Of a DNA stretch of 64,000 bases, positions 2,626 through 24,025 are shown piece by piece. The stretch's first letter is position 1. Each line of letters opens with the position of its first letter. The position numbers were made by a program, and so were the translations under genes. The notes under the pieces are model-generated. The model saw only the letters and a program-made list of their open reading frames with translations. It made no database searches and had not been told where the DNA came from. Source of the DNA: Limnothrix sp. BL-A-16 (GTDB lineage: Bacteria; Cyanobacteriota; Cyanobacteriia; CACIAM-69d); assembly GCA_041937175.2 (NCBI GenBank), contig CP166615.1:608001-672000 (forward strand), written 5' to 3'.

Positions 2626-2744
2626 CCGATCGCCCCATTTTCTCGCCCATGGGCCACGCAAAACCCGTGGGGTCATCCGTGCGGGCCGCCGTCGGGGTTT
2701 CGCTTAAAATTCAAAGGTTCGATCGCTCCCCGTCAGCGCCTGCC

Positions 2745-3599
2745 ATGTCTTCGCCCACCGCCACCCTCCTAATCAACTGCCCCGACCAGCGCGGCCTAGT
2801 CGCCAAAATTGCCAGCTTCATTGATGCCAACGGCGGCAACATTCTGCACGCCGACCAACACCAAGACCCCACCGCCAATTTGTTCCTCAGCCGCGTGGAA
2901 TGGCAGCTTGATGGCTTTAATTTGCCCCGCGATCTGATTAACCCAGCCTTCGGGGCGATCGCCAAACCCCTCGGTGCAACTTGGCAACTGCATTTTTCCG
3001 ACGACATTCCCCGCATGGCCATTTGGGTCAGCCGTCAGGATCATTGCTTGCTGGATTTGTTGTGGCGCAATAAGGCCGGCGAAATCCCCGCCAACATCGC
3101 TTTAATTATTAGCAACCATCCGGATTTAGCCCCGATCGCTCAACAATTTGGCATCGACTATCACCACGTACCGATTACCAAAGACACCAAATCCGAAGCC
3201 GAAGCCCAACAGCTTGCTCTGCTCGATCAATACAACATTGATCTAGTCGTCTTGGCGAAATATATGCAAATTCTTACGCCAGGATTTGTCGCCGCGTTTT
3301 CCAACGCGATTAACATTCATCACTCCTTTTTGCCCGCATTTCCCGGCGCAAATCCCTACCAACGGGCGCACGATCGCGGCGTAAAAGTGATCGGCGCAAC
3401 GGCCCACTACGTCACCCAAGATTTGGATGAAGGGCCGATCATTGAGCAAGATGTTTCGCGAGTCAGCCACCGCGATACGGTCGAAGATCTGATCCGCAAA
3501 GGCAAAGATCTAGAGCGCGTGGTGCTGGCCCGAGCGGTGCGGTTACACCTCCAACATCGCGTGCTGGTGTATGGAAACCGCACGGTTGTTTTTGAATAA
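2745..3599 (+). CDS. purU: Formyltetrahydrofolate deformylase
   Basis: CPDQRGLVA ACT start; VLAKYMQIL, INIHHSFLPAFPGANPY, GATAHYVT.DLDEGPIIEQ; start taken at MSSPTAT. Confidence 0.96.
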   Translation: MSSPTATLLINCPDQRGLVAKIASFIDANGGNILHADQHQDPTANLFLSRVEWQLDGFNLPRDLINPAFGAIAKPLGATWQLHFSDDIPRMAIWVSRQDHCLLDLLWRNKAGEIPANIALIISNHPDLAPIAQQFGIDYHHVPITKDTKSEAEAQQLALLDQYNIDLVVLAKYMQILTPGFVAAFSNAINIHHSFLPAFPGANPYQRAHDRGVKVIGATAHYVTQDLDEGPIIEQDVSRVSHRDTVEDLIRKGKDLERVVLARAVRLHLQHRVLVYGNRTVVFE

Positions 3600-3624
3600 T
3601 TTTCAGGGGAGTAGGTCGTCGAAT

Positions 3625-4038
3625 TTAGGGCTGCAACACTTGCGACTCAATAATCGAAATCCCGTGGCGATCGAGCAACTCCTTCACGGGAATTCTGACA
3701 TAGTCCTTGTTGTAAAAATCATCACGAACGACGTGTCCATCCCAAATAATGATGTCAAGATCGATCGTCTGGGGCCCTGCCTTGATCGGTCTTTTCACAC
3801 GGCCAAGTTGTTTTTCAACAGCTTTTAAATACTGGTTGAATTCCGAGTAATCCAGATGAGTTTCTACCCAAAAGGCTCCGTTCAAAAAATCATCTTGGTC
3901 TTGATAGCCCACAGGTGCAGTCAGAATATAAGCCGATGTGTCCAGTAATCGATGGTCAGTTGCTAAAATAATTTCGGATTGGTGGCAATACTTCTGTGGC
4001 TCAGTGTTGGAACCCACTGACAAAATTGCTTGATGCAT
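3625..4038 (-). CDS. folK: FolK-like 6-hydroxymethyl-dihydropterin pyrophosphokinase
   Basis: ILSVGSN, DFLNGA, LKAVEKQLGR, GPQTIDLDII motifs. Confidence 0.85.
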   Translation of the reverse strand: MHQAILSVGSNTEPQKYCHQSEIILATDHRLLDTSAYILTAPVGYQDQDDFLNGAFWVETHLDYSEFNQYLKAVEKQLGRVKRPIKAGPQTIDLDIIIWDGHVVRDDFYNKDYVRIPVKELLDRHGISIIESQVLQP

Positions 4039-4267
4039 GGGACAGGATCCTCACAGAATAGTTCAGCCTTGCAGCATTAATACCGGTCAACCATAAATCT
4101 TGCAGTCAATGCGCCCAGCATATTGCACACAGAATGCTTAGAGTTTTCAGAATACTCCAAATATTCAGGGTTTCCAGAGCTTCCAGAAATAATTCTAGTC
4201 AACCTAAAATCCTAGTTAACCTCTAGTCAACCTGAAGATTGCTCCAGACAACCTCCAGGTTTCAAAA

Positions 4268-5041
4268 CTACTGCTTGATCTGGGTTATTTGCTCATAGGT
4301 GACAGCGTTTCTACCAACGTTGGTTAGAGACTCACCACCATCGACAAATAAAATTTGCCCCGCCACAAAGGAGTTATCGAGAATATAGTGAACTGCTTTG
4401 ACAATATTCTCAGTCGATCCCTGTTGCTTCACAGGAATGCCATCAATCAACCATTCAACATAGTCCTGGGTGCGGGTGCTGACGGGCAAAATAAAACCGG
4501 GCGCAATACCATTAACCCGGATTGCTGGAGCGAGTTCGATCGCTGCTAGTTTTGTAAACTCCGCCAGAGCCTTTTTCGAGAGCAGATAGGCTGAATATTG
4601 ATATTGGTTGAAGGCAACTTTGTTATCAATAATATTGATCACGCAGCCGCTGCCATTGTTTTTTGCAAAGGCTTGGGTGAGGAAATAGGGTGCTTGGAAG
4701 TTAACTTTAAATTGCTTTTCAAACAAATCGAGTGTGGTTTCCGCGATCGGGGCCGCATCATAAACCGATGCACTATTGACCAAGACGTTTAAATCGCCAA
4801 AGCGAGATCGAACCCGTTCCACTAGCGGGTTCATATCAGGTTCATTGAGTAAATCAAAGGGAAATAGATCGCATTCCACACCATAGGAGCGAAATTCATC
4901 GGCGGTGGCCAGCGCTGCTTCCTGGGATGAATTGTAATGGAGAGCGATGTTATACCCTGCTTGGGCGAGGCTTTGAGAAATTGCTTTTCCGAGACGAATT
5001 GCGGAACCCGTCACCAGTGCTGTACCTTGAGCTTTGGGCAT
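4268..5041 (-). CDS. Pteridine reductase / FolM-like SDR
   Basis: ALVTGSAIRLG, IALHYNSS, LVNSAS, INIID, YLLSK; adjacent to folK. Confidence 0.85.
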   Translation of the reverse strand: MPKAQGTALVTGSAIRLGKAISQSLAQAGYNIALHYNSSQEAALATADEFRSYGVECDLFPFDLLNEPDMNPLVERVRSRFGDLNVLVNSASVYDAAPIAETTLDLFEKQFKVNFQAPYFLTQAFAKNNGSGCVINIIDNKVAFNQYQYSAYLLSKKALAEFTKLAAIELAPAIRVNGIAPGFILPVSTRTQDYVEWLIDGIPVKQQGSTENIVKAVHYILDNSFVAGQILFVDGGESLTNVGRNAVTYEQITQIKQ

Positions 5042-5739
5042 AATTTAATAATCAGGATTTGACAACTGGAGGGCGATCGTAACGGGATGAATCTCAGCAG
5101 ATTGTGACTGAATTGGGTTCAAGAATCGTACATTCAGCAACCGCTCAAAGCACCGAAAACACCAAATCAACGATTACCAGACGATGACTAATCTAGAGGG
5201 TCTAGATTGCTTTCTCAGAAATCGAGGTGCTGTTCCAAACTACCTAGATAGCCGACCTAGTAACTGATGATCATTGCGGCTTATGGCGGCGGGTTGATCG
5301 CAATCGGTCGATCGCAATGAGCTTACAGCGTTGCTAGATATTAACTTGAGATCGTGAATTAATGCTAAAGCAAAATTTAATATTTTGCAACCTAATGATC
5401 GGCTCATTCACAGAAAAAGCTGATGATTTTGATTAGTGATCAGAGCCTTTTAACCAGAATTTTGCTATCAGTAAATCATCAGAGTCTGTTATCAATCTGC
5501 CTCGACTAATTGGCCGAAAGAAATCCATCATATTAATCAGATTAACCTGCTGATTAATCTGACCAATGACCGCACGGATCAGTCGTTTGCCCATTAGTCC
5601 CGAATCATCTGATGGCCATAAAGCTGGAGTGCGATCGAGCCTAGGCCGATCGCACCCTCTCGCCAATCATCTTGCAGACTATTGATCGGCCCGCTTGCAC
5701 AAGACAATTGGCAAAAGATGGGATTGAATAATCTTGGAT

Positions 5740-6604: not shown

Positions 6605-6853
6605 CAAGAATCCAATCAAGAATCCAATCAAGAATTCATCAAGAATTTTAAGAGGCGAAGGTTCGCTGTCTGATTGATTGACAAAACTCCTAGTAGTCAA
6701 GTTTTACAGAAGGTGTCAATCGTTATGTTGTGACTAGCTGTATGGTGACTAGCTGCATAACAACTGTTTCACATTTTTTCAGCATCAGCTCAACCGATGA
6801 TTGATGATTGATGACTCGCAGGCTGAAAGAAATTCATGGAAATTCATGGGCAT

Positions 6854-7859: not shown

Positions 7860-8600
7860 TTAAGCCCGATCGCTCCCGCGAATGGCAGCAATGCCCGCAA
7901 AAATTACCGTGGGATCATGATGCACCGCCGCCCCCAGATCGGGATCGATCGCCCGTAAATACCGCAAAATGGTCGGCCCATCGCCGCCGGTCAGCACCAC
8001 CGCCCCCCTGGGATAGCGCGATCGCCAATCCCGAATCCAGGCTTGCACCAGGGTCGTCACCCCGTGGGCCACGCCGCTGGCGATCGCCCCCACCGAATCC
8101 TGCGCCCACAGTTCCGGCAATTGCTCAGGCGGTGACACGATCGGGAGGGCGGCCGTTTTTTCCGTCAAGCTACGCAGTTGCAGGCCCAGCCCTGGCGCGA
8201 TCGCCCCGCCGATCAGTTGCCGGTTTGGATCCACCGCCGTCAGGGTCATGGCCGTGCCACCGTCGATTACCACCGCCGGGAAACCATAGCGCCGCCCGGC
8301 CCCGAATGCGGCCAAGGCCCGATCGACCCCCAAGGTTCCATAGAGTCCCCCGATCGGGATATCGGCCAAGGTGATCATGTGCCAGTCGGTTTGATCGCGC
8401 CATCGATCGAGCGCCCCCGGAACCACGGACGCGGCCCAGACCAAACGCCCTTGGGCCAGGTCATCGACGGGTGGTTGGGGATCGTCCCAGGTGCGATCGA
8501 GCCGATCGCCCGTCCACTCGCCCCAGTGCCAGCGCGAATTGCCCACCATCAGCGATCGCCAGCGATCGGCCGCATTGTCGATCGTACCCATGGCCATCAA
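7860..8600 (-). CDS. coaX: Type III pantothenate kinase
   Basis: MVGNSRWHW, ASVVP, TLGVDR, VIDGGTA.T, GGAI.PG, LTGGDG. Confidence 0.93.
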   Translation of the reverse strand: MMAMGTIDNAADRWRSLMVGNSRWHWGEWTGDRLDRTWDDPQPPVDDLAQGRLVWAASVVPGALDRWRDQTDWHMITLADIPIGGLYGTLGVDRALAAFGAGRRYGFPAVVIDGGTAMTLTAVDPNRQLIGGAIAPGLGLQLRSLTEKTAALPIVSPPEQLPELWAQDSVGAIASGVAHGVTTLVQAWIRDWRSRYPRGAVVLTGGDGPTILRYLRAIDPDLGAAVHHDPTVIFAGIAAIRGSDRA

Positions 8601-8631
8601 GGGAGCTACATTGAGGGAACGGGTTCAAGCT

Positions 8632-12233: not shown

Positions 12234-13168
12234 ACTCGCCCGCCGACCCCAACCCCCGCAGCCTTGGGGCCACGGCCCAAGCCGCGATCGAAAAGCATTG
12301 GGCCAAGGCCGGCCGCCACGAAGCCGCCGTCCTCAAAGATCAGGATCCCGAAGAGTTGCATCAAATGCGTGTGGCCCTGCGACGGCTGCGATCGGCCATG
12401 GTGGGTTTTGCCTCGGCCATTGAGCTGCCCAAACGGGCCAGCGAGCGGGCCGTGGGTCAAGTGGCCAGAATTTTGGGGGAACTGCGCGATTTGGACGTGA
12501 TGGACGAAACCTTGCGCGATCGCTACCTCCAAAACCTACCCCCGGAAGAACAGCCCCTTTTGCAAACGGTTCGCGAAGAGCTGGCCGGCCAGCGCCAAAA
12601 AGCCTTCGGTCGTGTCAGCAAAACCCTACAAAAACGCGAATGGCCCGCCATCAACACGGCCCTTGGGCGTTGGATTGCCCAGCCGCGCCTGCGGCCCGCC
12701 GCCGATTGGCCCGCCGTGGTGGTGGTTCCCGATTTGCTGTTGCCCATTTTGTCCCACTGGTTAATGCATCCCGGCTGGTTGGTGCAAACCGAGGGGCGAT
12801 CGGTCACGGATCTTTCGTTGTTGGAGTGGGCGGTGATCCATGACCTGCGCAAGGTGGCCAAACGGGTGCGCTATCAAATGGCCCTTTTCACCGATTTCTA
12901 TGGCAGTGAATACGAGCGATTGCTCGACGCGATTGGCGATATCCAAACCGTGTTAGGCGATTTGCAAGATATCGCCGTGCTGGAAAACTTTTTGGTAAAA
13001 ACGATCGGGATTCAGTGGGCCACCGATGCGCCCGCCTGGGCTGGTTTGCTGGAGCAACAGCGCGATCGGGCTTGGGAAAACTGGCTGAAGCTCCAGGAGC
13101 AGTTCGATCGCCCCAATCAACGGGAACGGATCCGAGACGTGGTGAATCGCCCCCACCTCAACTCCTAG
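12212..13168 (+). CDS. CHAD domain protein
   Basis: DPEELHQMRVALRRLRS, LGELRDLDV, IHDLRK.AKRVRY, LGDLQD; GTG start inferred. Confidence 0.9.
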   Translation: MADDQPLDSPADPNPRSLGATAQAAIEKHWAKAGRHEAAVLKDQDPEELHQMRVALRRLRSAMVGFASAIELPKRASERAVGQVARILGELRDLDVMDETLRDRYLQNLPPEEQPLLQTVREELAGQRQKAFGRVSKTLQKREWPAINTALGRWIAQPRLRPAADWPAVVVVPDLLLPILSHWLMHPGWLVQTEGRSVTDLSLLEWAVIHDLRKVAKRVRYQMALFTDFYGSEYERLLDAIGDIQTVLGDLQDIAVLENFLVKTIGIQWATDAPAWAGLLEQQRDRAWENWLKLQEQFDRPNQRERIRDVVNRPHLNS

Positions 13169-13406
13169 AGGATGTCTGAGCAGTTCCCGACCAACGCATC
13201 AGGTCACCGGATCAGCACCACCTGCTCACTCATCAACTCACGGCTACCGCTTCCTTGGGCTATCCTCCACCATGCCACGCAAGTCATGTAGTCCAGTGAG
13301 TCATCTTTCTCAAGGATTCTTCTGCAAGGATTTGAAGTTTTGTGGTCAAGTATTTTATAAAATCTTTAAAAAGAGAAACACAAAAGTAAACATCAAGGAT
13401 TGACGT

Positions 13407-13435
13407 TTGACAGGTCATAGGGACAGCTCTAAGGT
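13407..13435 (+). promoter_or_regulatory. Putative sigma70-type promoter of the cas operon
   Basis: TTGACA (13407-12), 17 nt, TAAGGT (13430-35), 26 nt before cas5 ATG. Confidence 0.65.
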
Positions 13436-13461
13436 GTGTTTAACCTCCGTCTGAATTTTGT

Positions 13462-14103
13462 ATGAAAATTCGCCTTTGGGGAGAGCGGGCATTATTTGCC
13501 ATTCCCGCCTATAAGGTTGAAGCGCGTTCTTATCCCATTCCACCACCAACCGCCATTGAAGGGCTGCTGCGAAATCTCTATTGGCATCCGGGTTTTGAGT
13601 GGCGCTTGAATCGAATTGCAGTTAATTGCCCGATCGTCTATGAATCCGTAACCCGAAACATGGTGCAGGACATTGCACCCAGCCAAGAAACCCTGGCAGC
13701 GGGCAAGCGCTACACCATCGAAGACGATCGCACCCAGCGCACCCTATCGCTGTTGCGCAACGTGGACTACACAATCGACTGTGCCCTTTGGCATCCTGAG
13801 CCGATCAAGCAATCGCGCGGCAACCGAATCACGATCGAGCGCCTGCAAAGGGGCCAGCATTGGGCCCAGCCCTATCTGGGCCAGCGGGAATTTACGGCCC
13901 ATTTGGCCTTGCTGCCGCCAGACACCAAGTTGCGGGGCCACCCGACCCTGGGCCGTGAAATGTTGTTGCCTGTTATGCCCCGAGCAATTCGGTTTACCCC
14001 AAAAGGCACAACGGTTGAGTGGTTCCAGCCCACCTTGCGCGACGGCGTTTTGGATCTACGGAACTCTGAGCGACAGGAGAGCAGTGATGCTACAGGAACT
14101 TGA
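13462..14103 (+). CDS. cas5: Type I-C Cas5 (Cas5d)
   Basis: LWGERALF..P..KVE.RSY..PPPTA..GLL..LYWHP; RTQR..SLLRNVDY; GQ...QPYLGQREF. Confidence 0.93.
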   Translation: MKIRLWGERALFAIPAYKVEARSYPIPPPTAIEGLLRNLYWHPGFEWRLNRIAVNCPIVYESVTRNMVQDIAPSQETLAAGKRYTIEDDRTQRTLSLLRNVDYTIDCALWHPEPIKQSRGNRITIERLQRGQHWAQPYLGQREFTAHLALLPPDTKLRGHPTLGREMLLPVMPRAIRFTPKGTTVEWFQPTLRDGVLDLRNSERQESSDATGT

Positions 14104-15859
14104 CCAGCTCGCCAATTACCTAGAGACACCCGCAGTTCAGGGAGGGCTGCCCCCGATCGGGTACGAAAGCGCCACCGTGGAATTCGCGATCGACCTGAAC
14201 AACAGTTCAATTGTGCCCCTGTATCAAGAACCCGACCCCAAACGCAAATCCACAACCCAACAACTGGGGCGGCGGGTTCTCACCACCATCCGGCTCAGCA
14301 ACCATGCTCCAGCCCTACTGGATGACAAGTTGAAATACATCCTGGGGACGGGTTCCAATGGCCCCAAATGTCAACCGAAGTATCGTGAACTCTTGGGGTT
14401 GTTGCTGTCCAGTGCCGATCCCCCGTTTCCGTGGGCCCCGGCTATTCAGCAGTTGTTGGATTGTCCCCAACTAGCCGAAGCGGCCGCAATCCAAACAGGC
14501 TTGCCCTTGGCAGAGGTCGCCGACAAGCGCTGCCGCTTGCTGTGGGACGGTGAGCCGGTGGTCAACGATCCACAGGTGCGTATTTGGTGGCGCAATCACG
14601 TGCTGGAGAGGGACGGGGGACAGCAGGGGAACTGTTCCATTACTGGACAAACGGGATTAATCGTTAGCAAAACAATCCCAGCAACAGTTAAAGGCATTCC
14701 CGGCGCACAGCTCTCGGGAGCCAAACTGAGTTGCTTTGACAAGCCATCGATGTGTTCTTGGGGGCTTCAGCAAAACGCTAATGCTCCCTTGCTGGCCTCA
14801 GTGGGATTACGCAGTCATGCGGCCTTGCAAGTTCTGATTGAGGACAAGAACCACCACGCCAAACTCGGCAATCAGCTCTGGGTGTTTTGGGGCACGGAAG
14901 GCGAAGGCATCAAGGAAGAAATGTGGCAGGAGCAACCTGCGGGAGCTATGTGGCGCGACCCATCAGCATTCACCCAAATCATTGGGGCTTTTGATGACGC
15001 GACCAAATCGGGCACGCTGCCCCCCCGCAAGCTAGACCGGCCCTTCTTTCTGGCATCCCTGAGGGCCCATGGCGCAAGGATTGCAATCACCCGTTGGGAA
15101 ACCACCACCATTCGCCACATGGTGGATCGGCTGCAATGGTTTCGATCGGCCCAATGTCCGCATCAACGTTGGCGGCCCTTGGCCCTGTGGCAACTCCGGC
15201 AAGTGGCTTTTCACAAAGCACCCAAGCCCCCGGAAACCGCCTACATCGATGATGCACTGCTGGCCTGTGCGCTACAAAACGCCCCCTTACCCGATCAATA
15301 TGCCCAGCGGCTTTTGGATCGGCTTTGTGCAGAAGGCGACCTGGAAACCTACTGGAATCCCAAAAAAGTGGCTTGGGTTTTGCTCCAGCGGATCCAAGCA
15401 CTGGCCCTATACCTGGCATCTCGCAACATCAACATTCCTATGGACAATCAATCGTTACCGTTTGCTTTGGGGCAAGCCTGTTTTTGGATGGCCCAGGCCC
15501 AAGCCCGGGCCCAAAAGCGTCCCTTGGCAGCGACCAATGTGGTGCAAGCGCTGCGAGGAATTTTGCAGTCACCTTCCCGAGTTGCTGGGTTGTTCCCGAA
15601 TTTTTTCAACCATTTGAAAGAACTGGGATCTGTCCATGATCTTTACCTGGAGCGATTTTCACGGGCGATCGCCGCAACGGGTACAACGGGCGACTGTTTC
15701 CCCGAGAGTTTTTCCGTGGAAGACCAGGCTTTGTTCATGGTGGGGTTTGCCATGGCCTGTGCGGACAACGCGGAAAACCGCCACGCGGCCGCCCAGAAAA
15801 AACAAGCGGCCCAAGCTGAGATCGCTGACGACTCTGAAATTTTTGATCTGGAGGATTAA
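14087..15859 (+). CDS. cas8c: Type I-C large subunit Cas8c (Csd1), divergent
   Basis: MLQEL start with AGGAG upstream; CSITGQ, VKGIPG...GAKLSCFDK, GARIAI, FPESFSVEDQALFMVGF; lies between cas5 and cas7. Confidence 0.9.
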   Translation: MLQELDQLANYLETPAVQGGLPPIGYESATVEFAIDLNNSSIVPLYQEPDPKRKSTTQQLGRRVLTTIRLSNHAPALLDDKLKYILGTGSNGPKCQPKYRELLGLLLSSADPPFPWAPAIQQLLDCPQLAEAAAIQTGLPLAEVADKRCRLLWDGEPVVNDPQVRIWWRNHVLERDGGQQGNCSITGQTGLIVSKTIPATVKGIPGAQLSGAKLSCFDKPSMCSWGLQQNANAPLLASVGLRSHAALQVLIEDKNHHAKLGNQLWVFWGTEGEGIKEEMWQEQPAGAMWRDPSAFTQIIGAFDDATKSGTLPPRKLDRPFFLASLRAHGARIAITRWETTTIRHMVDRLQWFRSAQCPHQRWRPLALWQLRQVAFHKAPKPPETAYIDDALLACALQNAPLPDQYAQRLLDRLCAEGDLETYWNPKKVAWVLLQRIQALALYLASRNINIPMDNQSLPFALGQACFWMAQAQARAQKRPLAATNVVQALRGILQSPSRVAGLFPNFFNHLKELGSVHDLYLERFSRAIAATGTTGDCFPESFSVEDQALFMVGFAMACADNAENRHAAAQKKQAAQAEIADDSEIFDLED

Positions 15860-15862
15860 GCC

Positions 15863-16750
15863 ATGAGTCAAGACACTGAAATGCACTTGGATCCAACTTT
15901 ACGCCACGATGCGGTGTTGCTGTTTGACTGTGAACGGGGAAATCCGAATGGCGACCCAGACGCAGATAATCAACCCCGCATTGATCCCTACTCGGGGCGC
16001 GGGTTGGTGAGCGATGCTTGCGTGAAGCGGAAGCTGCGCGATTACGTGGCGATGGTGGCCAGCGATCGCCCTGAATACAAAATCCTGATTGAGCAGGGTG
16101 CGGTCATCAACAACCAGATTGAGCGCGGCTATATCGAGAGCGGGGCCGAAACCAGCGGTTCCAAAAAACCCAAGGAAAATTCCCCAGAACACAGGGCCCA
16201 ACAAGACCAGGTACGAGACTGGTTTCGTAAGAATTTCTTTGATGTGCGGATGTTTGGGGCGGTGTTGTCCACGGGGCGCAAGGTGGGTCAGGTGTTCGGG
16301 CCGGTGCAGGTGGCTTGGGCCATGTCTCAGGATCCAATTCGACCGTTGCGATCGACCCTAACGCGCTGTGCGGCCACGGAGGAAAAGGATGGTAAGGAAA
16401 ACAAAACCATGGGGGCGAAGTGGCTGTTGCCCTATGCGCTCTATCGCACGGAGGTGACCTACAACCCCTATCGCGATCGGGCGAGTGAGTATGTGACGAG
16501 GGAGGATTTGCAATTTCTGTGGGATGGATTGTTGCGGGCCTGGGATTTTGATCGTTCGGCGGCACGGGGCACGATGGCCTGTCGAGGGTTGTATATCTTC
16601 ACGCACCGGGCAAAGTTTGGGAATGCACCGGCCCATCAGCTTTTTGAGTCGGTGACGGTGACTCGCGTGGCGGACAAACCCCTATCGTTTCGGGATTATG
16701 CGGTGCAGGTGAGTGAACCACCGGAGGGGGTGAAGTTGACGGCGCTATGA
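15863..16750 (+). CDS. cas7: Type I-C Cas7 (Csd2)
   Basis: LLFDCERGNPNGDPDADNQPRID, VSDACVKRKLRDYV, FFDVRMFGAV, GPVQ, TMG.K, DRSAARG, GNAPAHQLF. Confidence 0.96.
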   Translation: MSQDTEMHLDPTLRHDAVLLFDCERGNPNGDPDADNQPRIDPYSGRGLVSDACVKRKLRDYVAMVASDRPEYKILIEQGAVINNQIERGYIESGAETSGSKKPKENSPEHRAQQDQVRDWFRKNFFDVRMFGAVLSTGRKVGQVFGPVQVAWAMSQDPIRPLRSTLTRCAATEEKDGKENKTMGAKWLLPYALYRTEVTYNPYRDRASEYVTREDLQFLWDGLLRAWDFDRSAARGTMACRGLYIFTHRAKFGNAPAHQLFESVTVTRVADKPLSFRDYAVQVSEPPEGVKLTAL

Positions 16751-16965
16751 GCGCGAAGGGGAAGTGCTGTTTTTGGGTGATCGCCTGAATCCCAAGCGGA
16801 ACAACGAGTTCAGGGCAATTTCTGAAATTTCGGTTCGCGATTCTTGCGCTGTCTGAGTTTGGGCGCTGAATCGCTGGTTCAGTTGCCTGGTTTTGACCTG
16901 GTTTGGCTGGGATCGCGAATCGTGCCTCTCAACTACTGATGTTGCAAGACTTTGGAAGCCAAGCA
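16751..16965 (+). promoter_or_regulatory. CRISPR leader
   Basis: Non-coding 215 bp 5' of first repeat, with recurring gcgcgaa/ttcgcg motifs; repeat orientation (3' ATTGAAAC) places the leader on this side. Confidence 0.7.
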
Positions 16966-18905
16966 GCAAAATCCCCCGCTCCGGCGGGGCCGCAATTGAA
17001 ACGGTGTGGACATGAACGGCAACCCCGTGATCGCACGCAAAATCCCCCGCTCCGGCGGGGCCGCAATTGAAACCACTCAGGAAATCGTGTTCCCAAATCC
17101 CTCTGGTGAGCAAAATCCCCCGCTCCGGCGGGGCCGCAATTGAAACCGTGTCGGTACAGTTGGCAATCCACTCGCCCAATCCGCAAAATCCCCCGCTCCG
17201 GCGGGGCCGCAATTGAAACCGTATCGGTGACGCGGTAGCTAGCCCCCCATTTGCGGGCAAAATCCCCCGCTCCGGCGGGGCCGCAATTGAAACCACCAAT
17301 CCGGACAAAGCAGATCCCTGGTATGTGGGCAAAATCCCCCGCTCCGGCGGGGCCGCAATTGAAACAATGCCGCCATCCATGCCCACCGATTTGGCCCCGA
17401 GTGCAAAATCCCCCGCTCCGGCGGGGCCGCAATTGAAACACCGGGACAGCCAAGCAAGAGCTGGCCCAAGGGCTGCAAAATCCCCCGCTCCGGCGGGGCC
17501 GCAATTGAAACTGGCTCAATTTCCTGGAAACCTTTGCCACACCGGGCACTGCAAAATCCCCCGCTCCGGCGGGGCCGCAATTGAAACTTGCTGGCTGGCT
17601 GATGGCTCGATCGCCTCATCGCAAAATCCCCCGCTCCGGCGGGGCCGCAATTGAAACTTCGGCGGTGGGGGCGGGGGCGGCGATTGGGGCGGTGCAAAAT
17701 CCCCCGCTCCGGCGGGGCCGCAATTGAAACAGCCCTTAGTCTGGTCTCCAGATTGAGGGCTTTTTGAGCAAAATCCCCCGCTCCGGCGGGGCCGCAATTG
17801 AAACGCTTTTTAACGGTTTTTGGAGAGGGTCGCAAGTGACGCAAAATCCCCCGCTCCGGCGGGGCCGCAATTGAAACCCTATCAAGCTCCCGCCCTGGCA
17901 TGAGAAGCGCCTAGCAAAATCCCCCGCTCCGGCGGGGCCGCAATTGAAACATCGTCAGTGAGCAGGTTTTTGCTGTTGGTGGTCATGGTGCAAAATCCCC
18001 CGCTCCGGCGAGGCCGCAATTGAAACGTGCCCAACTCGGGGCCATTCGCGTTGCGTTTTAATGCAAAATCCCCCGCTCCGGCGGGGCCGCAATTGAAACA
18101 GAGTCAGCTAAAAGAGTTCTGCACCTCAGTGCTATGCAAAATCCCCCGCTCCGGCGGGGCCGCAATTGAAACACTCAGGGCGTTTGCGAGCCGGGGGACT
18201 CGGTGCGGCAAAATCCCCCGCTCCGGCGGGGCCGCAATTGAAACATCCTTATCTGATTGCGACGGGACGATCATGTAACCGCAAAATCCCCCGCTCCGGC
18301 GGGGCCGCAATTGAAACCCACGTAACCCCGGCCAGCTCGGTAACTTTCCCGGTCAGCAAAATCCCCCGCTCCGGCGGGGCCGCAATTGAAACACGATGGA
18401 TTGTCAGTCCATGAGATATACAGGGCAGGCAAAATCCCCCGCTCCGGCGGGGCCGCAATTGAAACACCAGCCAACTGACTCGCGGCGACTACCTCTACGA
18501 CGCAAAATCCCCCGCTCCGGCGGGGCCGCAATTGAAACCCATCCAAGCGATCGCGCCGCCGTCACCGACACCTGCAAAATCCCCCGCTCCGGCGGGGCCG
18601 CAATTGAAACATGTCGCGCCAACTGGGCGGCTTGAACTGTACAAGCAAAATCCCCCGCTCCGGCGGGGCCGCAATTGAAACGATCTCGGGGAACCCGCCC
18701 GCACCTCGGGCCGCTTGCCCGCAAAATCCCCCGCTCCGGCGGGGCCGCAATTGAAACTAGGTAGACAGAAAACCGTTTGTGGAAGGTGTCATGCAAAATC
18801 CCCCGCTCCGGCGGGGCCGCAATTGAAACAGCCAGGGTCTTGATCCGCTCGGCCGCCTGATTGAGCGCGCAAAATCCCCCGCTCCGGCGGGGCCGCAATT
18901 GAAAC
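16966..18905 (+). CRISPR. CRISPR array, 27 repeats of 37 bp (GCAAAATCCCCCGCTCCGGCGGGGCCGCAATTGAAAC), 26 spacers of 33-39 bp
   Basis: Counted directly; only repeat 15 differs (G>A at 18011); internal hairpin CCCCGC-TCCG-GCGGGG. Confidence 0.99.
17731..17765 (+). terminator. Intrinsic-terminator-like structure forming spacer 11
   Basis: AGCCCTTAGTCTGG-TCT-CCAGATTGAGGGCT 14-bp stem (two G-U pairs) with a T5 run at 17761-65. Confidence 0.7.
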
Positions 18906-18915
18906 ATAACAACCT

Positions 18916-21000
18916 ATGAAAAAAACACCGATTAAAACATCTCAACCCCTCGCCAGACCCAACCAATTACTAACCACCCATCTTCAAGAAACCGCCAACT
19001 TTTCAAAACAAATCATTGCTCCCCATTCCCCCCCTTCCCTCCAATCGATCGCCTACCTCATTGGCGCATTACACGACCTTGGCAAAGCCAATCCTCAATG
19101 GCAAGCCAAACTGAATCGCCCAAACTCCGCCTTGCACGATCGCGTTCCCCACGCCGCCCACGGCGCATGGGTTGCCCTTGAACAGCTCAACCGAAATCCT
19201 GAAGGAGCCACCGCCAAAGCCATTGCCCACTGCATCGCTGCCCACCACACGCGCTTACGAAATTGGGGCGATCGGGAAGGAAAAATCTACGAAACCGAAA
19301 CCGTTGCTCAAACCTGTTGGGATCTTTTAAGACAACTGGATTCTGAGCTTCACGAATCCATCTTGCAAGCAGCCGCCAACAGCCATGAACTCCCCCACAA
19401 CAGCCAGGGTGAAATGACCGTTCGCTTGCTCTATTCCGCCCTCATTGAGGCCGATCGCTGCTCTGCGGCCGCAATTCAACCCGCCGCCTTTCCCGCTTCC
19501 TTGCTGCTTCAGCCTTCTCCTCCCGCCCCCGTTTGCCAACCTAAAGATCAATGGCGCAATTTATTTGCACAGCATTGCCAGCGATTAGCTGAACAACCGC
19601 CCGGCTGGTATCGAATTACTGGCCCCTGTGGTGTTGGCAAAACCCAAGCTTCCGCCCAAGCCATCGCTCAACATATTCAACACAATCAGATGCGCGGGCT
19701 AATCTTTGTGGGGCCGCTGAAATCCGTCATTGAACAGACCGCCCATCACTATCGCCGCTGGTTTGGCGCTGAACAGGTGCTGGAACATCACGGCGATTTT
19801 GATAGCAGTCAAGATGCCGACTATCGCGATCGCTGCGCCCGTTGGAATAGTCCCGTCATCTGCACAAGCGGCGCACAGTTCTTTGATTCACTGCTGAGCG
19901 ATCGAGCAGGGCGTTGCCGCAAGCTTCAGCAATTAATTGGCCGAGCCATTGTGATTGATGAGGCTCAATATTTACCACCTCATTTGGCTGTTCCTGTTCT
20001 GTCAGCCCTCAACACTTTGGTTCAACAATTTGGTTGCACAGTTGTGTTGATGTCAGCCACAAATCCCGCCTTTTCTGGGGTTGCAAAGGTACTGGAAGAG
20101 GCCGGCAGTCCGCTGCCACCTTGGGTTGATGTGGTGCAACCGGATGAAGTCAAGTCTCTGTTTGCTGCCATGACCACAACGAGCTGGCGCTTGGGCGGCC
20201 CCATGAACTGGAACGCGATCGCGAAAGATGTGCAGTCTGCGGGTTGCACTTCCGTGGCCACGATTGTAAATACAACCGCCCTAGCCCGAACTGCCGCAAT
20301 TCAACTGCAAGAATCATTGGCCGATTGGACAATTGCCCACCTTTCGGCGCGGATGTATCCCCAACATCGTGGCCAAACGATTCAGGCAGTACGCCAGGTA
20401 ATTCAACGGGGCGATCGCATTTTGCTGGTCGGTACTCAGGTTATTGAGGCCGGCGTTGATCTGGATTTTCAGCGTCTCTACACCCAAATGGCTCCGTTAG
20501 ACTCCCTGTTGCAGCGGGCGGGGCGATGCGATCGCAATGGTTGTCATCCTGGCTCTGTCGTCACCATTTTTGAGACGGGCCAGGCTTTTGATGTGCGCCA
20601 AACAGATATTGCGGTCACTCGCCCACTGCTGGAGAAAGCTATTGCATCCACCGATGGAATGCTTGAGGCGATCGATCAGTTCTATAGGACTATCTATAGT
20701 CGCGATCGGATCCAAACGGGAATTGAGATCGAGCGTCTGCGTCATTACTGGCAATTTGGTGATGTGGCTGACCGAGCTAAAACGATTGAAGAGGGCGATC
20801 GCATTCGGGTGGTCATTCCTAATTCAGATCTCGATCTGGCCAAGCTATCCAATCAAAAATTAACCTGGAAAGATTGGCGAGAAATCAGTCGCTACTCAGT
20901 TTCTATCCCCCTCAAATATCAAAAAAGTATCGAATTTTGTGCCAATGGCTTGCCCGTCTGGCGCGGTGGATATGACCAATTTGGTTGGGTTGATCCTTAG
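18916..21000 (+). CDS. cas3: Cas3 HD nuclease-helicase
   Basis: LTTHL, LHDLGK, HAAHG, AAHH, LIEADR; GPCGVGKT, LEHH, IDEAQ, LMSAT, VNT, TQVIEAGVDLDF, QRAGRCDR. Confidence 0.96.
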   Translation: MKKTPIKTSQPLARPNQLLTTHLQETANFSKQIIAPHSPPSLQSIAYLIGALHDLGKANPQWQAKLNRPNSALHDRVPHAAHGAWVALEQLNRNPEGATAKAIAHCIAAHHTRLRNWGDREGKIYETETVAQTCWDLLRQLDSELHESILQAAANSHELPHNSQGEMTVRLLYSALIEADRCSAAAIQPAAFPASLLLQPSPPAPVCQPKDQWRNLFAQHCQRLAEQPPGWYRITGPCGVGKTQASAQAIAQHIQHNQMRGLIFVGPLKSVIEQTAHHYRRWFGAEQVLEHHGDFDSSQDADYRDRCARWNSPVICTSGAQFFDSLLSDRAGRCRKLQQLIGRAIVIDEAQYLPPHLAVPVLSALNTLVQQFGCTVVLMSATNPAFSGVAKVLEEAGSPLPPWVDVVQPDEVKSLFAAMTTTSWRLGGPMNWNAIAKDVQSAGCTSVATIVNTTALARTAAIQLQESLADWTIAHLSARMYPQHRGQTIQAVRQVIQRGDRILLVGTQVIEAGVDLDFQRLYTQMAPLDSLLQRAGRCDRNGCHPGSVVTIFETGQAFDVRQTDIAVTRPLLEKAIASTDGMLEAIDQFYRTIYSRDRIQTGIEIERLRHYWQFGDVADRAKTIEEGDRIRVVIPNSDLDLAKLSNQKLTWKDWREISRYSVSIPLKYQKSIEFCANGLPVWRGGYDQFGWVDP

Positions 21001-21025
21001 CTGACTGAGGCCGATCACCTGTCAA

Positions 21026-21562
21026 TCAGCGGGTCAAAGGAGCAGCACCATACCAACCTTGGAGATAGGTTTGCAGCATGGCGGCGGCCGTCGTGCGGCT
21101 GGGGGCCCGATCGGGCATAGACCACCACCCCCAAGCGTGATCGGGCGATCGCCAAAAGGCCTGGTGGGACAGGGGTGGATCGGCCCAAAACTGCGCCCGC
21201 CCGGCCCCCAACCAAGCGGAACTGTGGTGCGTCCATTGATCGTGGCTGAACCGATAAATTGGCAGTCCTCCCGGCAGCGCCACCCCCCAACCATCCCAGG
21301 CAAACACCGCCCGCACTCGCCCACCGCGCCGCTGCCAAGCCTGAGCGGCTCCCAAGGCCGCCACCACTCCCGCACTGAAGCCAATTAGCCCGATCGCCCG
21401 TTGGGGATCGATCTCCCGCAGCGCCTCCAGCACCCGATCGCCCCGATAGGTAGCCTCCCAAATCACCAAAGGTTGCGGCCAGGCGGGTTTCCAGGTGGCT
21501 GCTAAAAACTGTTCCGTCGCCGATCGATCCGCAAAGCCGGGACAAATGCAACAAATCGGCAT
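21026..21562 (-). CDS. Hypothetical protein with alpha/beta-hydrolase-like GxSxG motif
   Basis: ICPG, LIGFSAGVVAA, DGWGV, SHD.WTH.SS, HQ.FWRSP; start MPICC inferred. Confidence 0.75.
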   Translation of the reverse strand: MPICCICPGFADRSATEQFLAATWKPAWPQPLVIWEATYRGDRVLEALREIDPQRAIGLIGFSAGVVAALGAAQAWQRRGGRVRAVFAWDGWGVALPGGLPIYRFSHDQWTHHSSAWLGAGRAQFWADPPLSHQAFWRSPDHAWGWWSMPDRAPSRTTAAAMLQTYLQGWYGAAPLTR

Positions 21563-21960
21563 GGCGGCCTTGGTTCGTTGGGTCTGATCCCTCTGGATTG
21601 GAAGATCGTGAGCGAGTTGACCGTTATTTTGAGGGTCATGAATTTGAGAACCAGAGGCTTGATTTTCCCCATGGAGACAATTCCAAGAATTCCAATATTT
21701 TGCAGACCTATTTAAATTTTTCATCGAAATTGTTACCCAATTTTTGATTGATCTTTGCGTTTAGTGACCAAGCATTACAAAAAGATAAAAGTCCTGATCA
21801 AGATCTCCAAAGAAATTTGTCTTCTTCTCAAGAATTTCCCTTAACTGATGCCGATTGACCAACTGAAATCTGATTCCGCTTTCATAATAGAAATGAATCC
21901 CCCCATGAGGCATTTGCTGTGGCTGCGTCTTCCCAAAAGGCTGAAGGTCAATCCCCCCTG

Positions 21961-23221: not shown

Positions 23222-24025
23222 TCAAGGTTTCAAATTCAGCGATAGTTGCAGAATTGAAGCGGGATGATTCGGTGTGGGAATTGGCTCGGGACTGGTGGTT
23301 TGGGCTGGGCAATATTGTTTGTAATGACACTGATCGCAATGGGTTCCGGGATTGGGTTCCCAGGCGCGATCGGTTCGTAATCGCTGGGCCAAGTCTGCAA
23401 TCACCGCCTGGGCTGCGATCAACCGTTCTTCAGTGACGGGAATTCGCACCGATTCCCCGGGCCGCAAAAAAATGAGGTTGATGTATTTCAGCTCCCGTTC
23501 CCATTGTTGATTGATGGCGATCGCGTAGAGGCCCACTTGCATCGTGAGCTGATCAAAATCTGGCTCCACAAATTGCCGTGAGGTTTTGTACTCAATTAAT
23601 TCGAGGGAGTCTAAATCAAACCAATCGAGGCGATCGAGCCGACCCGTGAGGGCAAATTCCAAGTCATTGATTTGTAATCGACCTTGAATTTTGGCCTCCG
23701 TGGCCAGGGGTTTGAGGAAGCGATCGCTCGGTTCAATCCAGTGATGGAAATAGCGCACCAAAATATCGTAGCCCTCGGCAATTTGGCGCTCCGTGAGACC
23801 AGCGGTTTCTTGAGTCCAGCAAGCATCAATCCAACTGAGTCCTGGTTTTTGGGGATAGCTATAGTCCCAATCGCGGTAAATTCGCGTGAGTGCCCCATGG
23901 AGCGATCGCCCTAGGGCCGCGCCGCCAAAACCCGCCGTCGGAATTTTATATTCATAGCGAAATTGATATCGAGCGGGACAGGTTTGGTAGGTGGTTAATT
24001 TGGCCGGCGAGAGTCGATAGGACAT
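23222..24025 (-). CDS. RecB/Cas4-like PD-(D/E)XK nuclease with four Cys
   Basis: LSPAKL..Y.TCP, G.SLH, LTGRLDRLD, IEYKTS, Q.GLYA, CDQCHYKQYC. Confidence 0.9.
   Translation of the reverse strand: MSYRLSPAKLTTYQTCPARYQFRYEYKIPTAGFGGAALGRSLHGALTRIYRDWDYSYPQKPGLSWIDACWTQETAGLTERQIAEGYDILVRYFHHWIEPSDRFLKPLATEAKIQGRLQINDLEFALTGRLDRLDWFDLDSLELIEYKTSRQFVEPDFDQLTMQVGLYAIAINQQWERELKYINLIFLRPGESVRIPVTEERLIAAQAVIADLAQRLRTDRAWEPNPGTHCDQCHYKQYCPAQTTSPEPIPTPNHPASILQLSLNLKP

Follow-up and report, generated by a model that had tools for sequence, protein, structure and literature searches.

The window analysed here, a stretch of 64,000 nucleotides (nt) from Limnothrix sp. BL-A-16 (contig CP166615.1, positions 608,001 to 672,000), carries an island of CRISPR (short palindromic repeats, clustered and regularly interspaced) and cas genes of type I-C-like composition. 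Its genes follow the order cas5-cas8c-cas7-leader-array-cas3, and the last repeat of the array ends 10 nt before the start codon of cas3. Positions are those of the window, and the features of the locus are collected in Table 1. An earlier note made from the letters of the window (the original prediction) had been concerned with the array and cas3; to these we add the upstream cas5-cas8c-cas7 genes, the missing adaptation genes and the island character of the locus.

Table 1. Features of the CRISPR-Cas island and its surroundings in the window (aa, amino acids; ORF, open reading frame)
Feature	Position	Strand	Description
CRISPR-Cas island	13169-21046	+	7.9 kb, type I-C-like; all genes on the + strand
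Candidate operon promoter	13407-13435	+	TTGACA-17 nt-TAAGGT, 27 nt before cas5; consensus match from a scan for TAnnnT with the best -35
cas5	13462-14103	+	Cas5c-like, 213 aa; PF09704 E 1.9e-12, score 48.1 (cut-off 23)
cas8c (Csd1)	14087-15859	+	Likely ATG at 14087 behind GGAGAG; maximal ORF from 13673
cas7 (Csd2)	15863-16750	+	TIGR02589 score 249.8 (cut-off 182.25); PF05107 E 8e-81; GGAGGA before start
CRISPR leader	16751-16965	+	215 nt, directly after cas7
CRISPR array	16966-18905	+	27 repeats of 37 nt (GCAAAATCCCCCGCTCCGGCGGGGCCGCAATTGAAAC), 26 spacers of 33-39 nt
Last repeat	18869-18905	+	0 mismatches to the 37-nt repeat
Hairpin of last repeat	18877-18882/18887-18892	+	13-nt tail CCGCAATTGAAAC after the stem
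Gap	18906-18915	+	10 nt (ATAACAACCT) between last repeat and cas3 ATG at 18916
Hypothetical Cas7 footprint	18906-18947	+	Seven subunits per crRNA (from the available text of PMC7684278), ~42 nt at 6 nt each; would span the AUG and some 10 codons from the start
cas3	18916-21000	+	HD nuclease and helicase, 694 aa, intact; Pfam Cas3_HD, DEAD, Cas3-like_C_2
PD-(D/E)XK (weak Cas4-like) gene	23222-24025	-	2.2 kb past the island

The four proteins were assigned by family profiles. In addition to its Pfam match, Cas5 scores 66.7 with TIGR01876, under the cut-off of 85, and its best solved relative is PDB 7kha_A (CRISPR-associated protein, CT1134 family; E 2e-26), a Cas5 chain that processes the precursor of CRISPR RNA (pre-crRNA). 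The alignment of Cas5 to 8dex_A, a pre-crRNA processing endonuclease, is identical to that obtained with 7kha_A. Cas8c matches positions 3-552 of the 559-position PF09709 profile (E 4.6e-53) and, since its TIGR01863 score of 154.9 falls under the equivalog cut-off of 218.65, is regarded as a divergent member of the family. Cas3 scores above cut-off with both TIGR01596 (85.7) and TIGR01587 (122.1). The genome, 100% complete in 2 contigs, holds no other Cas7, and profile searches found neither Cas1 nor Cas2 nor Cas6 (PF01881) in it. Of the features that mark type I-C, the locus has Cas8c (Csd1), a Csd2-type Cas7 and a Cas5c/Cas5d fold without Cas6.

With the canonical type I-C systems of Desulfovibrio vulgaris and Bacillus halodurans, the island shares a Cas5c-like protein, Cas8c, Cas7/Csd2, an HD-helicase Cas3 and the lack of Cas6, together with a repeat that forms a GC hairpin and has a tail ending ATTGAAAC. 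The repeat is longer here (37 nt with a 13-nt tail, compared to 32 nt with an 11-nt tail), and the gene order is permuted. The canonical order is cas3-cas5-cas8c-cas7-cas4-cas1-cas2-array, whereas in the window the array stands between cas7 and cas3, and cas4, cas1 and cas2 are absent from the genome.

A blastn comparison with a genome of the same genus (G002) defined the limits of the system. Positions 1-2644 of the G002 locus (L145) match window positions 23689-21047 at 91.9% identity, and positions 2719-4401 match 13168-11495 at 94.2%. Because G002 has these matching flanks with just 74 nt between them, we conclude that the whole system is a 7.9-kb island. It is flanked by CHAD-domain and ferrochelatase-like genes sharing 92-94% DNA identity with G002. 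No clear target-site duplication was seen at the island ends, and a 6-nt GAGCAG lies near both. The PD-(D/E)XK gene probably does not belong to the CRISPR system, since most of its locus (to 23689) is matched in G002, which lacks the island. Elsewhere, G002 holds a canonical type I-C locus, whose Cas3 is 34% identical to that of the window.

Near-identical variants of Cas3 and Cas5, differing by 1-3 amino acids, occur in environmental data, where they are known from proteins; an environmental Cas7 variant was placed by membership of the same 90% cluster rather than by alignment. As the environmental variants agree with the window in the N-terminus of Cas3 and in Arg119-Gly120 of Cas5, neither is an assembly error.

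The junction between the array and cas3 is real and unusual. The original prediction had described the final repeat as not degenerate and the cas3 ATG as lying 10 nt behind it, on the same strand and without a clear Shine-Dalgarno sequence, and the sequence agrees on each point. The gap contains no GGAG-type Shine-Dalgarno, while cas8c and cas7 are each preceded by one, leaving cas3 as the only downstream cistron that lacks it. A TAA at 18907-18909 is in frame with cas3, and no in-frame ATG, GTG or TTG occurs between 18916 and the HD motifs; the ATG at 18916 is therefore the sole usable start of cas3. The TIGR01596 (HD) match begins at residue 19, with His22 lying within LLTTHL. The N-terminus of Cas3 aligns with those of its homologues to within a few residues, and the HD and helicase motifs are kept in the alignment. 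An N-terminal extension built from array sequence was considered and rejected, as the N-terminus is just ~3 residues longer than that of the nearest clade and, in the segment past a spacer-length gap, a comparison by hand shows agreement with the repeat in just 10-12 positions out of 37. The AUG is situated 11-13 nt past the end of the last repeat. The predicted fold of the junction RNA keeps the repeat hairpin but is as a whole no more stable than shuffled sequences (z = -0.88). The gap ATAACAACCT appears similar to the short native cas3 5' untranslated region (UTR) of the relative G240 (ATAACA + 4 nt + ATGAA), a weak likeness of 6 nt plus spacing.

Apart from the copy at 17990, which carries one mismatch, the repeats of the array are identical (26 of 27). 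They consist of a 6-bp GC stem, a 4-nt loop and a 13-nt tail, CCGCAAUUGAAAC, in which AUUGAAAC is kept and the three bases beside the canonical cut are changed. No copy of the repeat was found elsewhere in the genome when up to 9 mismatches were allowed, so this is the single array of its kind. A repeat-like match inside cas3 (19 of 26 positions at 19456-19481, + strand, core GGCCGCAATT) is regarded as chance, since it lacks a hairpin and the genome holds 10 matches of this kind beyond the array, this one included. Alignment of the leader with those of seven relatives revealed 20 invariant columns and two GGTTCGCG-type blocks, and this homology sets the direction of transcription from cas7 towards cas3.

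To place the gene order in context, we compared the locus with its relatives. The closest Cas3 sequences among 5.8 billion clustered proteins are 37-42% identical. Matches to Cas3 were obtained in 20 of 61 near-relative genomes at E <= 1e-3 and, at E <= 1e-40, in 2 of 8 genomes of the order and 26 of 401 genomes of the class. Fifteen distinct cyanobacterial loci with all four genes were compared (L054 and L142 being the same locus). In eight of these cas3 is divergent from cas5-cas8c-cas7, and five have the canonical cas3-cas5-cas8c-cas7. The two remaining loci are cas5-cas8c-cas7-cas3-array (G375) and cas7-array-cas3 (G125); in the latter the last repeat is degenerate, and a Uma2 gene and 699 nt lie between it and cas3. 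A repeat adjoins cas3 in none of the 15 loci. Similarly, none of 80 general type I-C loci has an array ending within 10 nt of cas3, whatever the orientation of the array, the nearest upstream array end being ~330 nt off. Thus, there is no conserved repeat-to-ATG arrangement, an outcome that the original prediction had itself listed as counting against it.

In a Cas7 tree of 24 rows, built after the removal of 6 rows whose matches were short or split, the window belongs to a clade of 8 (support 98/99). Because the other seven members all have cas3 divergent from cas5, the gene order of the window is derived. At the canonical loci L054/L142, L081, L110 and L111, the Cas7 tblastn match lies in two pieces 180-560 nt apart, which could be due to a frameshift, to inserted sequence or to an intervening element.

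The sister clade (G343, G240, G392, G185, G388, G218 and G050) resembles the window in Cas7 (48-56% identical), in the 37-nt length of its repeats, which end GATTGAAAC or GATTGGAAC, and in its homologous leader; its array follows directly after cas7 or after cas4-cas1-cas2. Unlike in the window, cas3 is divergent from cas5, has its own upstream region and has no repeat beside it. A perfect terminal repeat is also present in 5 of 8 relatives' arrays. Moreover, in G240 a KdpD/Usp gene (PF02702 E 4e-95; L136 5561-6679, - strand) begins ~20 nt past the last full repeat, on the strand of the array, and is apparently fed by read-through from it. Intact terminal repeats and genes that begin right behind an array thus occur apart from cas3 as well. 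In G343, G240 and G185, the last full repeat is immediately followed by one or two additional partial, handle-only copies, for example ATTGAGGATTGAAAC (L135 ~5440-5481, - strand; L136 ~6684-6698, - strand; L138 11159-11173, + strand), a conserved trait of the array end.

Several cyanobacterial type I-C loci (L135-L138, L143) likewise have the array directly after cas7 without cas4-cas1-cas2. Cas1 is absent from the genomes of G240 and G125 (both 99% complete) and occurs only elsewhere in the genome in G343, G392 and G185, while G388 keeps Uma2-cas4-cas1-cas2 before the leader. Altogether, 3 of 6 genomes checked, that of the window included, have no Cas1 at all. The locus of the window is one of a group of cyanobacterial type I-C systems that lack adaptation genes beside the array.

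We then looked for transcription signals across the island. The one good promoter-like site precedes cas5 (Table 1). Neither the leader nor the 416 nt leading up to cas3 (18500-18916) contain a TAnnnT motif, and the three present in the whole array have no -35. A consensus promoter scan of 16000-19600 returned a single site, at 17160, compared to 1.3 expected from shuffled sequences, and none near the junction. Seventeen terminator-like sites were found in the same interval, all of them on the minus strand and 13 of them inside repeats; none lies on the plus strand between cas7 and cas3. The RNA-binding domain of Rho is absent from the genome, the control profile giving a match in 9 of 14 genomes. 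Since a promoter-like site is present upstream of cas5 but not in the leader or before cas3, and no plus-strand terminator-like site intervenes, cas3 is most likely the 3' tail of an operon/pre-crRNA transcript. The original prediction had already proposed that cas3 is the tail of the pre-crRNA, and the one-strand layout, the promoter-like site and the lack of plus-strand terminator-like sites and of Rho are sequence hints that support it. Between 16974 and 18816 of the minus strand, 13 of the 27 repeats resemble terminators, with GATTTTGC coming after a CCCCGC/GCGGGG hairpin, and they might stop antisense transcription arriving from the convergent gene at 21026-21724.

Altogether, the island is a compact, interference-only type I-C-like system with a derived gene order, and it most likely works as one transcription unit. 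As to the junction, we favour, with modest confidence, the interpretation that the cas3 message forms the 3' tail of the operon/pre-crRNA transcript and is released when the last repeat is cleaved, and that its 10-nt adjacency to the array is the scar of a rearrangement in this lineage. RNA polymerase would initiate upstream of cas5, possibly weakly in the leader as well, traverse the 1.9-kb array, which has no plus-strand terminator in a genome without Rho, and continue into cas3. Each repeat would then be cleaved, Cas5 being the only candidate for a dedicated enzyme, to yield a cas5-cas8c-cas7 mRNA, 26 CRISPR RNAs (crRNAs) and a cas3 mRNA. From the available text of PMC8524198, the cut in the last repeat is predicted to fall after 18892 (the stem base) or after 18894 (leaving an 11-nt handle), and the cas3 mRNA would begin with a crRNA handle of 11-13 nt followed by the 10 nt of the gap, without a Shine-Dalgarno. 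We infer co-transcription, cleavage in the last repeat and this 5' end from the arrangement of the locus. The ancestral cas3 would have been divergent from cas5 and would have lost its own promoter in the move, the adjacency being no conserved regulatory device and any effect of the handle on Cas3 output a by-product.

Several observations weigh against this interpretation, among them the state of the presumed processing enzyme and its substrate. According to the available text of PMC8524198, Cas5c recognises the cut site plus downstream handle nucleotides, cuts at the stem base leaving a 5'-OH, and has a Tyr-Lys-His catalytic triad in which Lys is invariant; the Bacillus halodurans enzyme (BhaCas5c) requires U22-G23-G24. 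In the window, Tyr40 is kept, but a MAFFT alignment and a profile built from the relatives both place Arg119-Gly120 in the catalytic Lys-His/Tyr columns, in contrast to the Lys-His of the canonical type I-C Cas5. At the column of residue 119, Lys is found in 32 of 32 relatives' rows (31 distinct loci), followed by His, Tyr, Phe or Ala. The triad is thus incomplete in the window, an environmental variant likewise has Arg119-Gly120, and nearby Lys116 is not a displaced catalytic Lys, as the environmental variant has Glu there. The handle has changed too: the last 11 nt of the repeat are GCAAUUGAAAC, compared to UGGAUUGAAAC in the clade, and the three bases beside the cut differ from UGG. Because BhaCas5c needs UGG, cleavage at the canonical site is uncertain. 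The enzyme may have changed in step with its substrate; alternatively, cleavage may be weak or occur at a shifted site. The claim of the original prediction that Cas5 cuts the repeat and that Cascade assembles on the handle accords with what is published for type I-C, while the Cas5 of the window lacks the catalytic Lys and its handle lacks UGG. In G125, the three leader-proximal repeats (L143 ~8480-8630, - strand) differ from the others at 4 handle positions (GAGTGTGTC vs GAGTGAAAG).

On the side of transcription, the -10 of the candidate promoter is weak, matching TATAAT at 3 of 6 positions, and a stricter consensus scan missed the site. Such scans capture cyanobacterial promoters poorly, and a weak internal promoter may have escaped them. 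One metatranscriptome run (0.11 of sampled words) leaves the junction and the array uncovered. The metatranscriptome contigs map within cas3, at 19022-19181 and 19228-19468 (99% alike), and are uninformative on co-transcription and 5' ends.

The altered Cas5 (Lys to Arg and His/Tyr to Gly) could also mark the island as a decaying or silent remnant, in which crRNAs and Cas3 would be too scarce to be useful and the junction would serve no purpose. The lack of Cas1, Cas2 and Cas6 points in this direction, as do a leader without the -10 box seen in relatives and spacers whose targets could not be recognised, a blastn search of the array against phages and plasmids giving chance-level matches only (E 0.5-0.6). 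However, all four cas ORFs are intact with full-length family matches, the repeats are almost uniform, and the HD and helicase motifs of Cas3 are kept. Adaptation-less relatives are common, G240 and G125 also being without Cas1, and the Cas3, Cas5 and Cas7 variants on other environmental contigs suggest that the island persists in a population. We consider a remnant unlikely, although it comes next after the favoured interpretation.

Alternatively, cas3 could be transcribed from a promoter of its own, weak or unlike the consensus, within the last spacer or repeat and independent of both read-through from the array and processing, and its mRNA may be leaderless, starting at or near the ATG. In the sister clade, the 5' UTRs of cas3 seem to be AT-rich and very short, a -10-like box standing 11-20 nt ahead of the ATG, and near-leaderless translation of cas3 may for this reason be native to the clade. 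In the window, CATAAC at 18905-18910 matches TATAAT at 4 of 6 positions, but the final T, which is conserved, is missing and no -35 accompanies it, the sequence at the 17-nt position being CTCCGG. The absence of TAnnnT motifs and of consensus promoters near the junction also speaks against such a promoter, which we regard as improbable and rank behind the remnant.

The original prediction had gone further and suggested a feedback between Cascade and the cas3 mRNA, in which loading of Cas5/Cas7 over the translation start could repress, stabilise or titrate Cas3 synthesis. Here, Cas5 would stay on the handle and Cas7 would extend over ~42 nt including the start codon. The array would then act as an intercistronic processing cassette, with Cas5, itself a Cascade subunit, cutting the operon mRNA. 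In an evolved loop of this kind, a growing pool of free Cascade subunits would lower translation of Cas3, and crRNAs would lift the block by absorbing them. Each Cas7 subunit covers 6 nt, and the AUG of cas3 would lie inside the resulting footprint. As Cas5c recognises the cut site plus downstream nucleotides, it would stay with the downstream fragment, and the cas3 message would carry the handle. In the available text of PMC7684278, the 5' handle is clamped by Cas5c together with Cas7.7, seven Cas7 subunits bind the RNA backbone non-specifically, and the complexed crRNA has no 3' stem-loop. That cas3 alone among the downstream cistrons has no Shine-Dalgarno also speaks for the loop. However, the layout recurs in none of the 15 cyanobacterial and 80 general type I-C loci, cas3 of the seven nearest relatives retains a separate, divergent promoter, and the KdpD gene of G240 indicates that adjacency of a repeat and a gene can arise without any link to cas3; the missing catalytic Lys and the diverged handle count against the loop as well. 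Such a feedback is mechanistically possible but unsupported, and we judge it the least likely of these explanations.

In type I systems, cas3 is usually under separate control. If cas3 is the tail of the pre-crRNA in the window, the closest parallel is CRISPR4 of Myxococcus xanthus, where, in the available text of PMC6061681, the cas operon reads through a silent leader into the array. The window would share with it a promoter upstream of the cas genes, a leader with negligible promoter activity and a polycistronic cas-mRNA/pre-crRNA. In M. xanthus, however, the array ends the transcript and Cas6 processes it, and the cas gene behind the array is the new element relative to known read-through from cas genes into an array.

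Regulation of cas genes by repeat-derived RNA has precedents that differ from the arrangement here. CreR is reportedly a repeat-derived RNA that regulates cas genes via promoter DNA. For crRNA-like degenerate mini-arrays, the available part of 10.1101/2023.03.03.530964 describes a guide that binds a promoter DNA target flanked by a protospacer-adjacent motif; the terms 'I-C', 'mRNA' and 'translation' do not occur in the preprint. These elements have in common with the window a repeat-derived RNA element near cas3, and they set Cas levels. Unlike them, the last repeat of the window is a full member of the array, any effect of which would be in cis on RNA rather than at the DNA level, and the window does not have the CreR-type pair of degenerate repeats with a promoter-matching spacer.

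A further analogy comes from synthetic operons. Engineered Csy4/Cas6 sites placed before ORFs serve as operon insulators and define a 5'-OH end of the mRNA, Cas6 staying on the upstream fragment. The window likewise has a CRISPR endonuclease site just before an ORF, but Cas5c would stay on the downstream fragment, here the mRNA. As the processing protein of type I-C remains with the downstream RNA, the junction would lend itself, as it stands in nature, to testing whether Cascade can load onto a handle-bearing mRNA and how this affects translation or stability. If the junction is no more than the scar of a rearrangement, it is a curiosity confined to a single species. In the open literature, exclusive of subscription papers and supplements, we found neither a cas start codon abutting a terminal repeat nor Cascade loading on a cas mRNA.

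Further searches concerned the repeat and the spacers. A search of 13000-21200 against Rfam gave no family at E up to 0.1. The searched metagenome contigs did not contain the exact 30-nt repeat core, and a 19-nt core gave three single metagenome matches, without arrays, and none in viral contigs; the searched metagenome and genome collections may omit near-identical records by design. With the 17-nt handle and up to 1 mismatch, no array was detected in 400 other cyanobacterial genomes, the maximum being 3 scattered matches per genome. The 36 nt after the last repeat, which would act as a pseudo-spacer, have no second match in the genome better than 14 nt (E 0.33). Among the spacers, the only self-match in the genome is that of spacer 26, whose 3' 20 nt (18849-18868) are found exactly at C1:69142-69161 (E 1e-4), its 5' seed part being unmatched. 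This match is probably due to chance or a partial relic.

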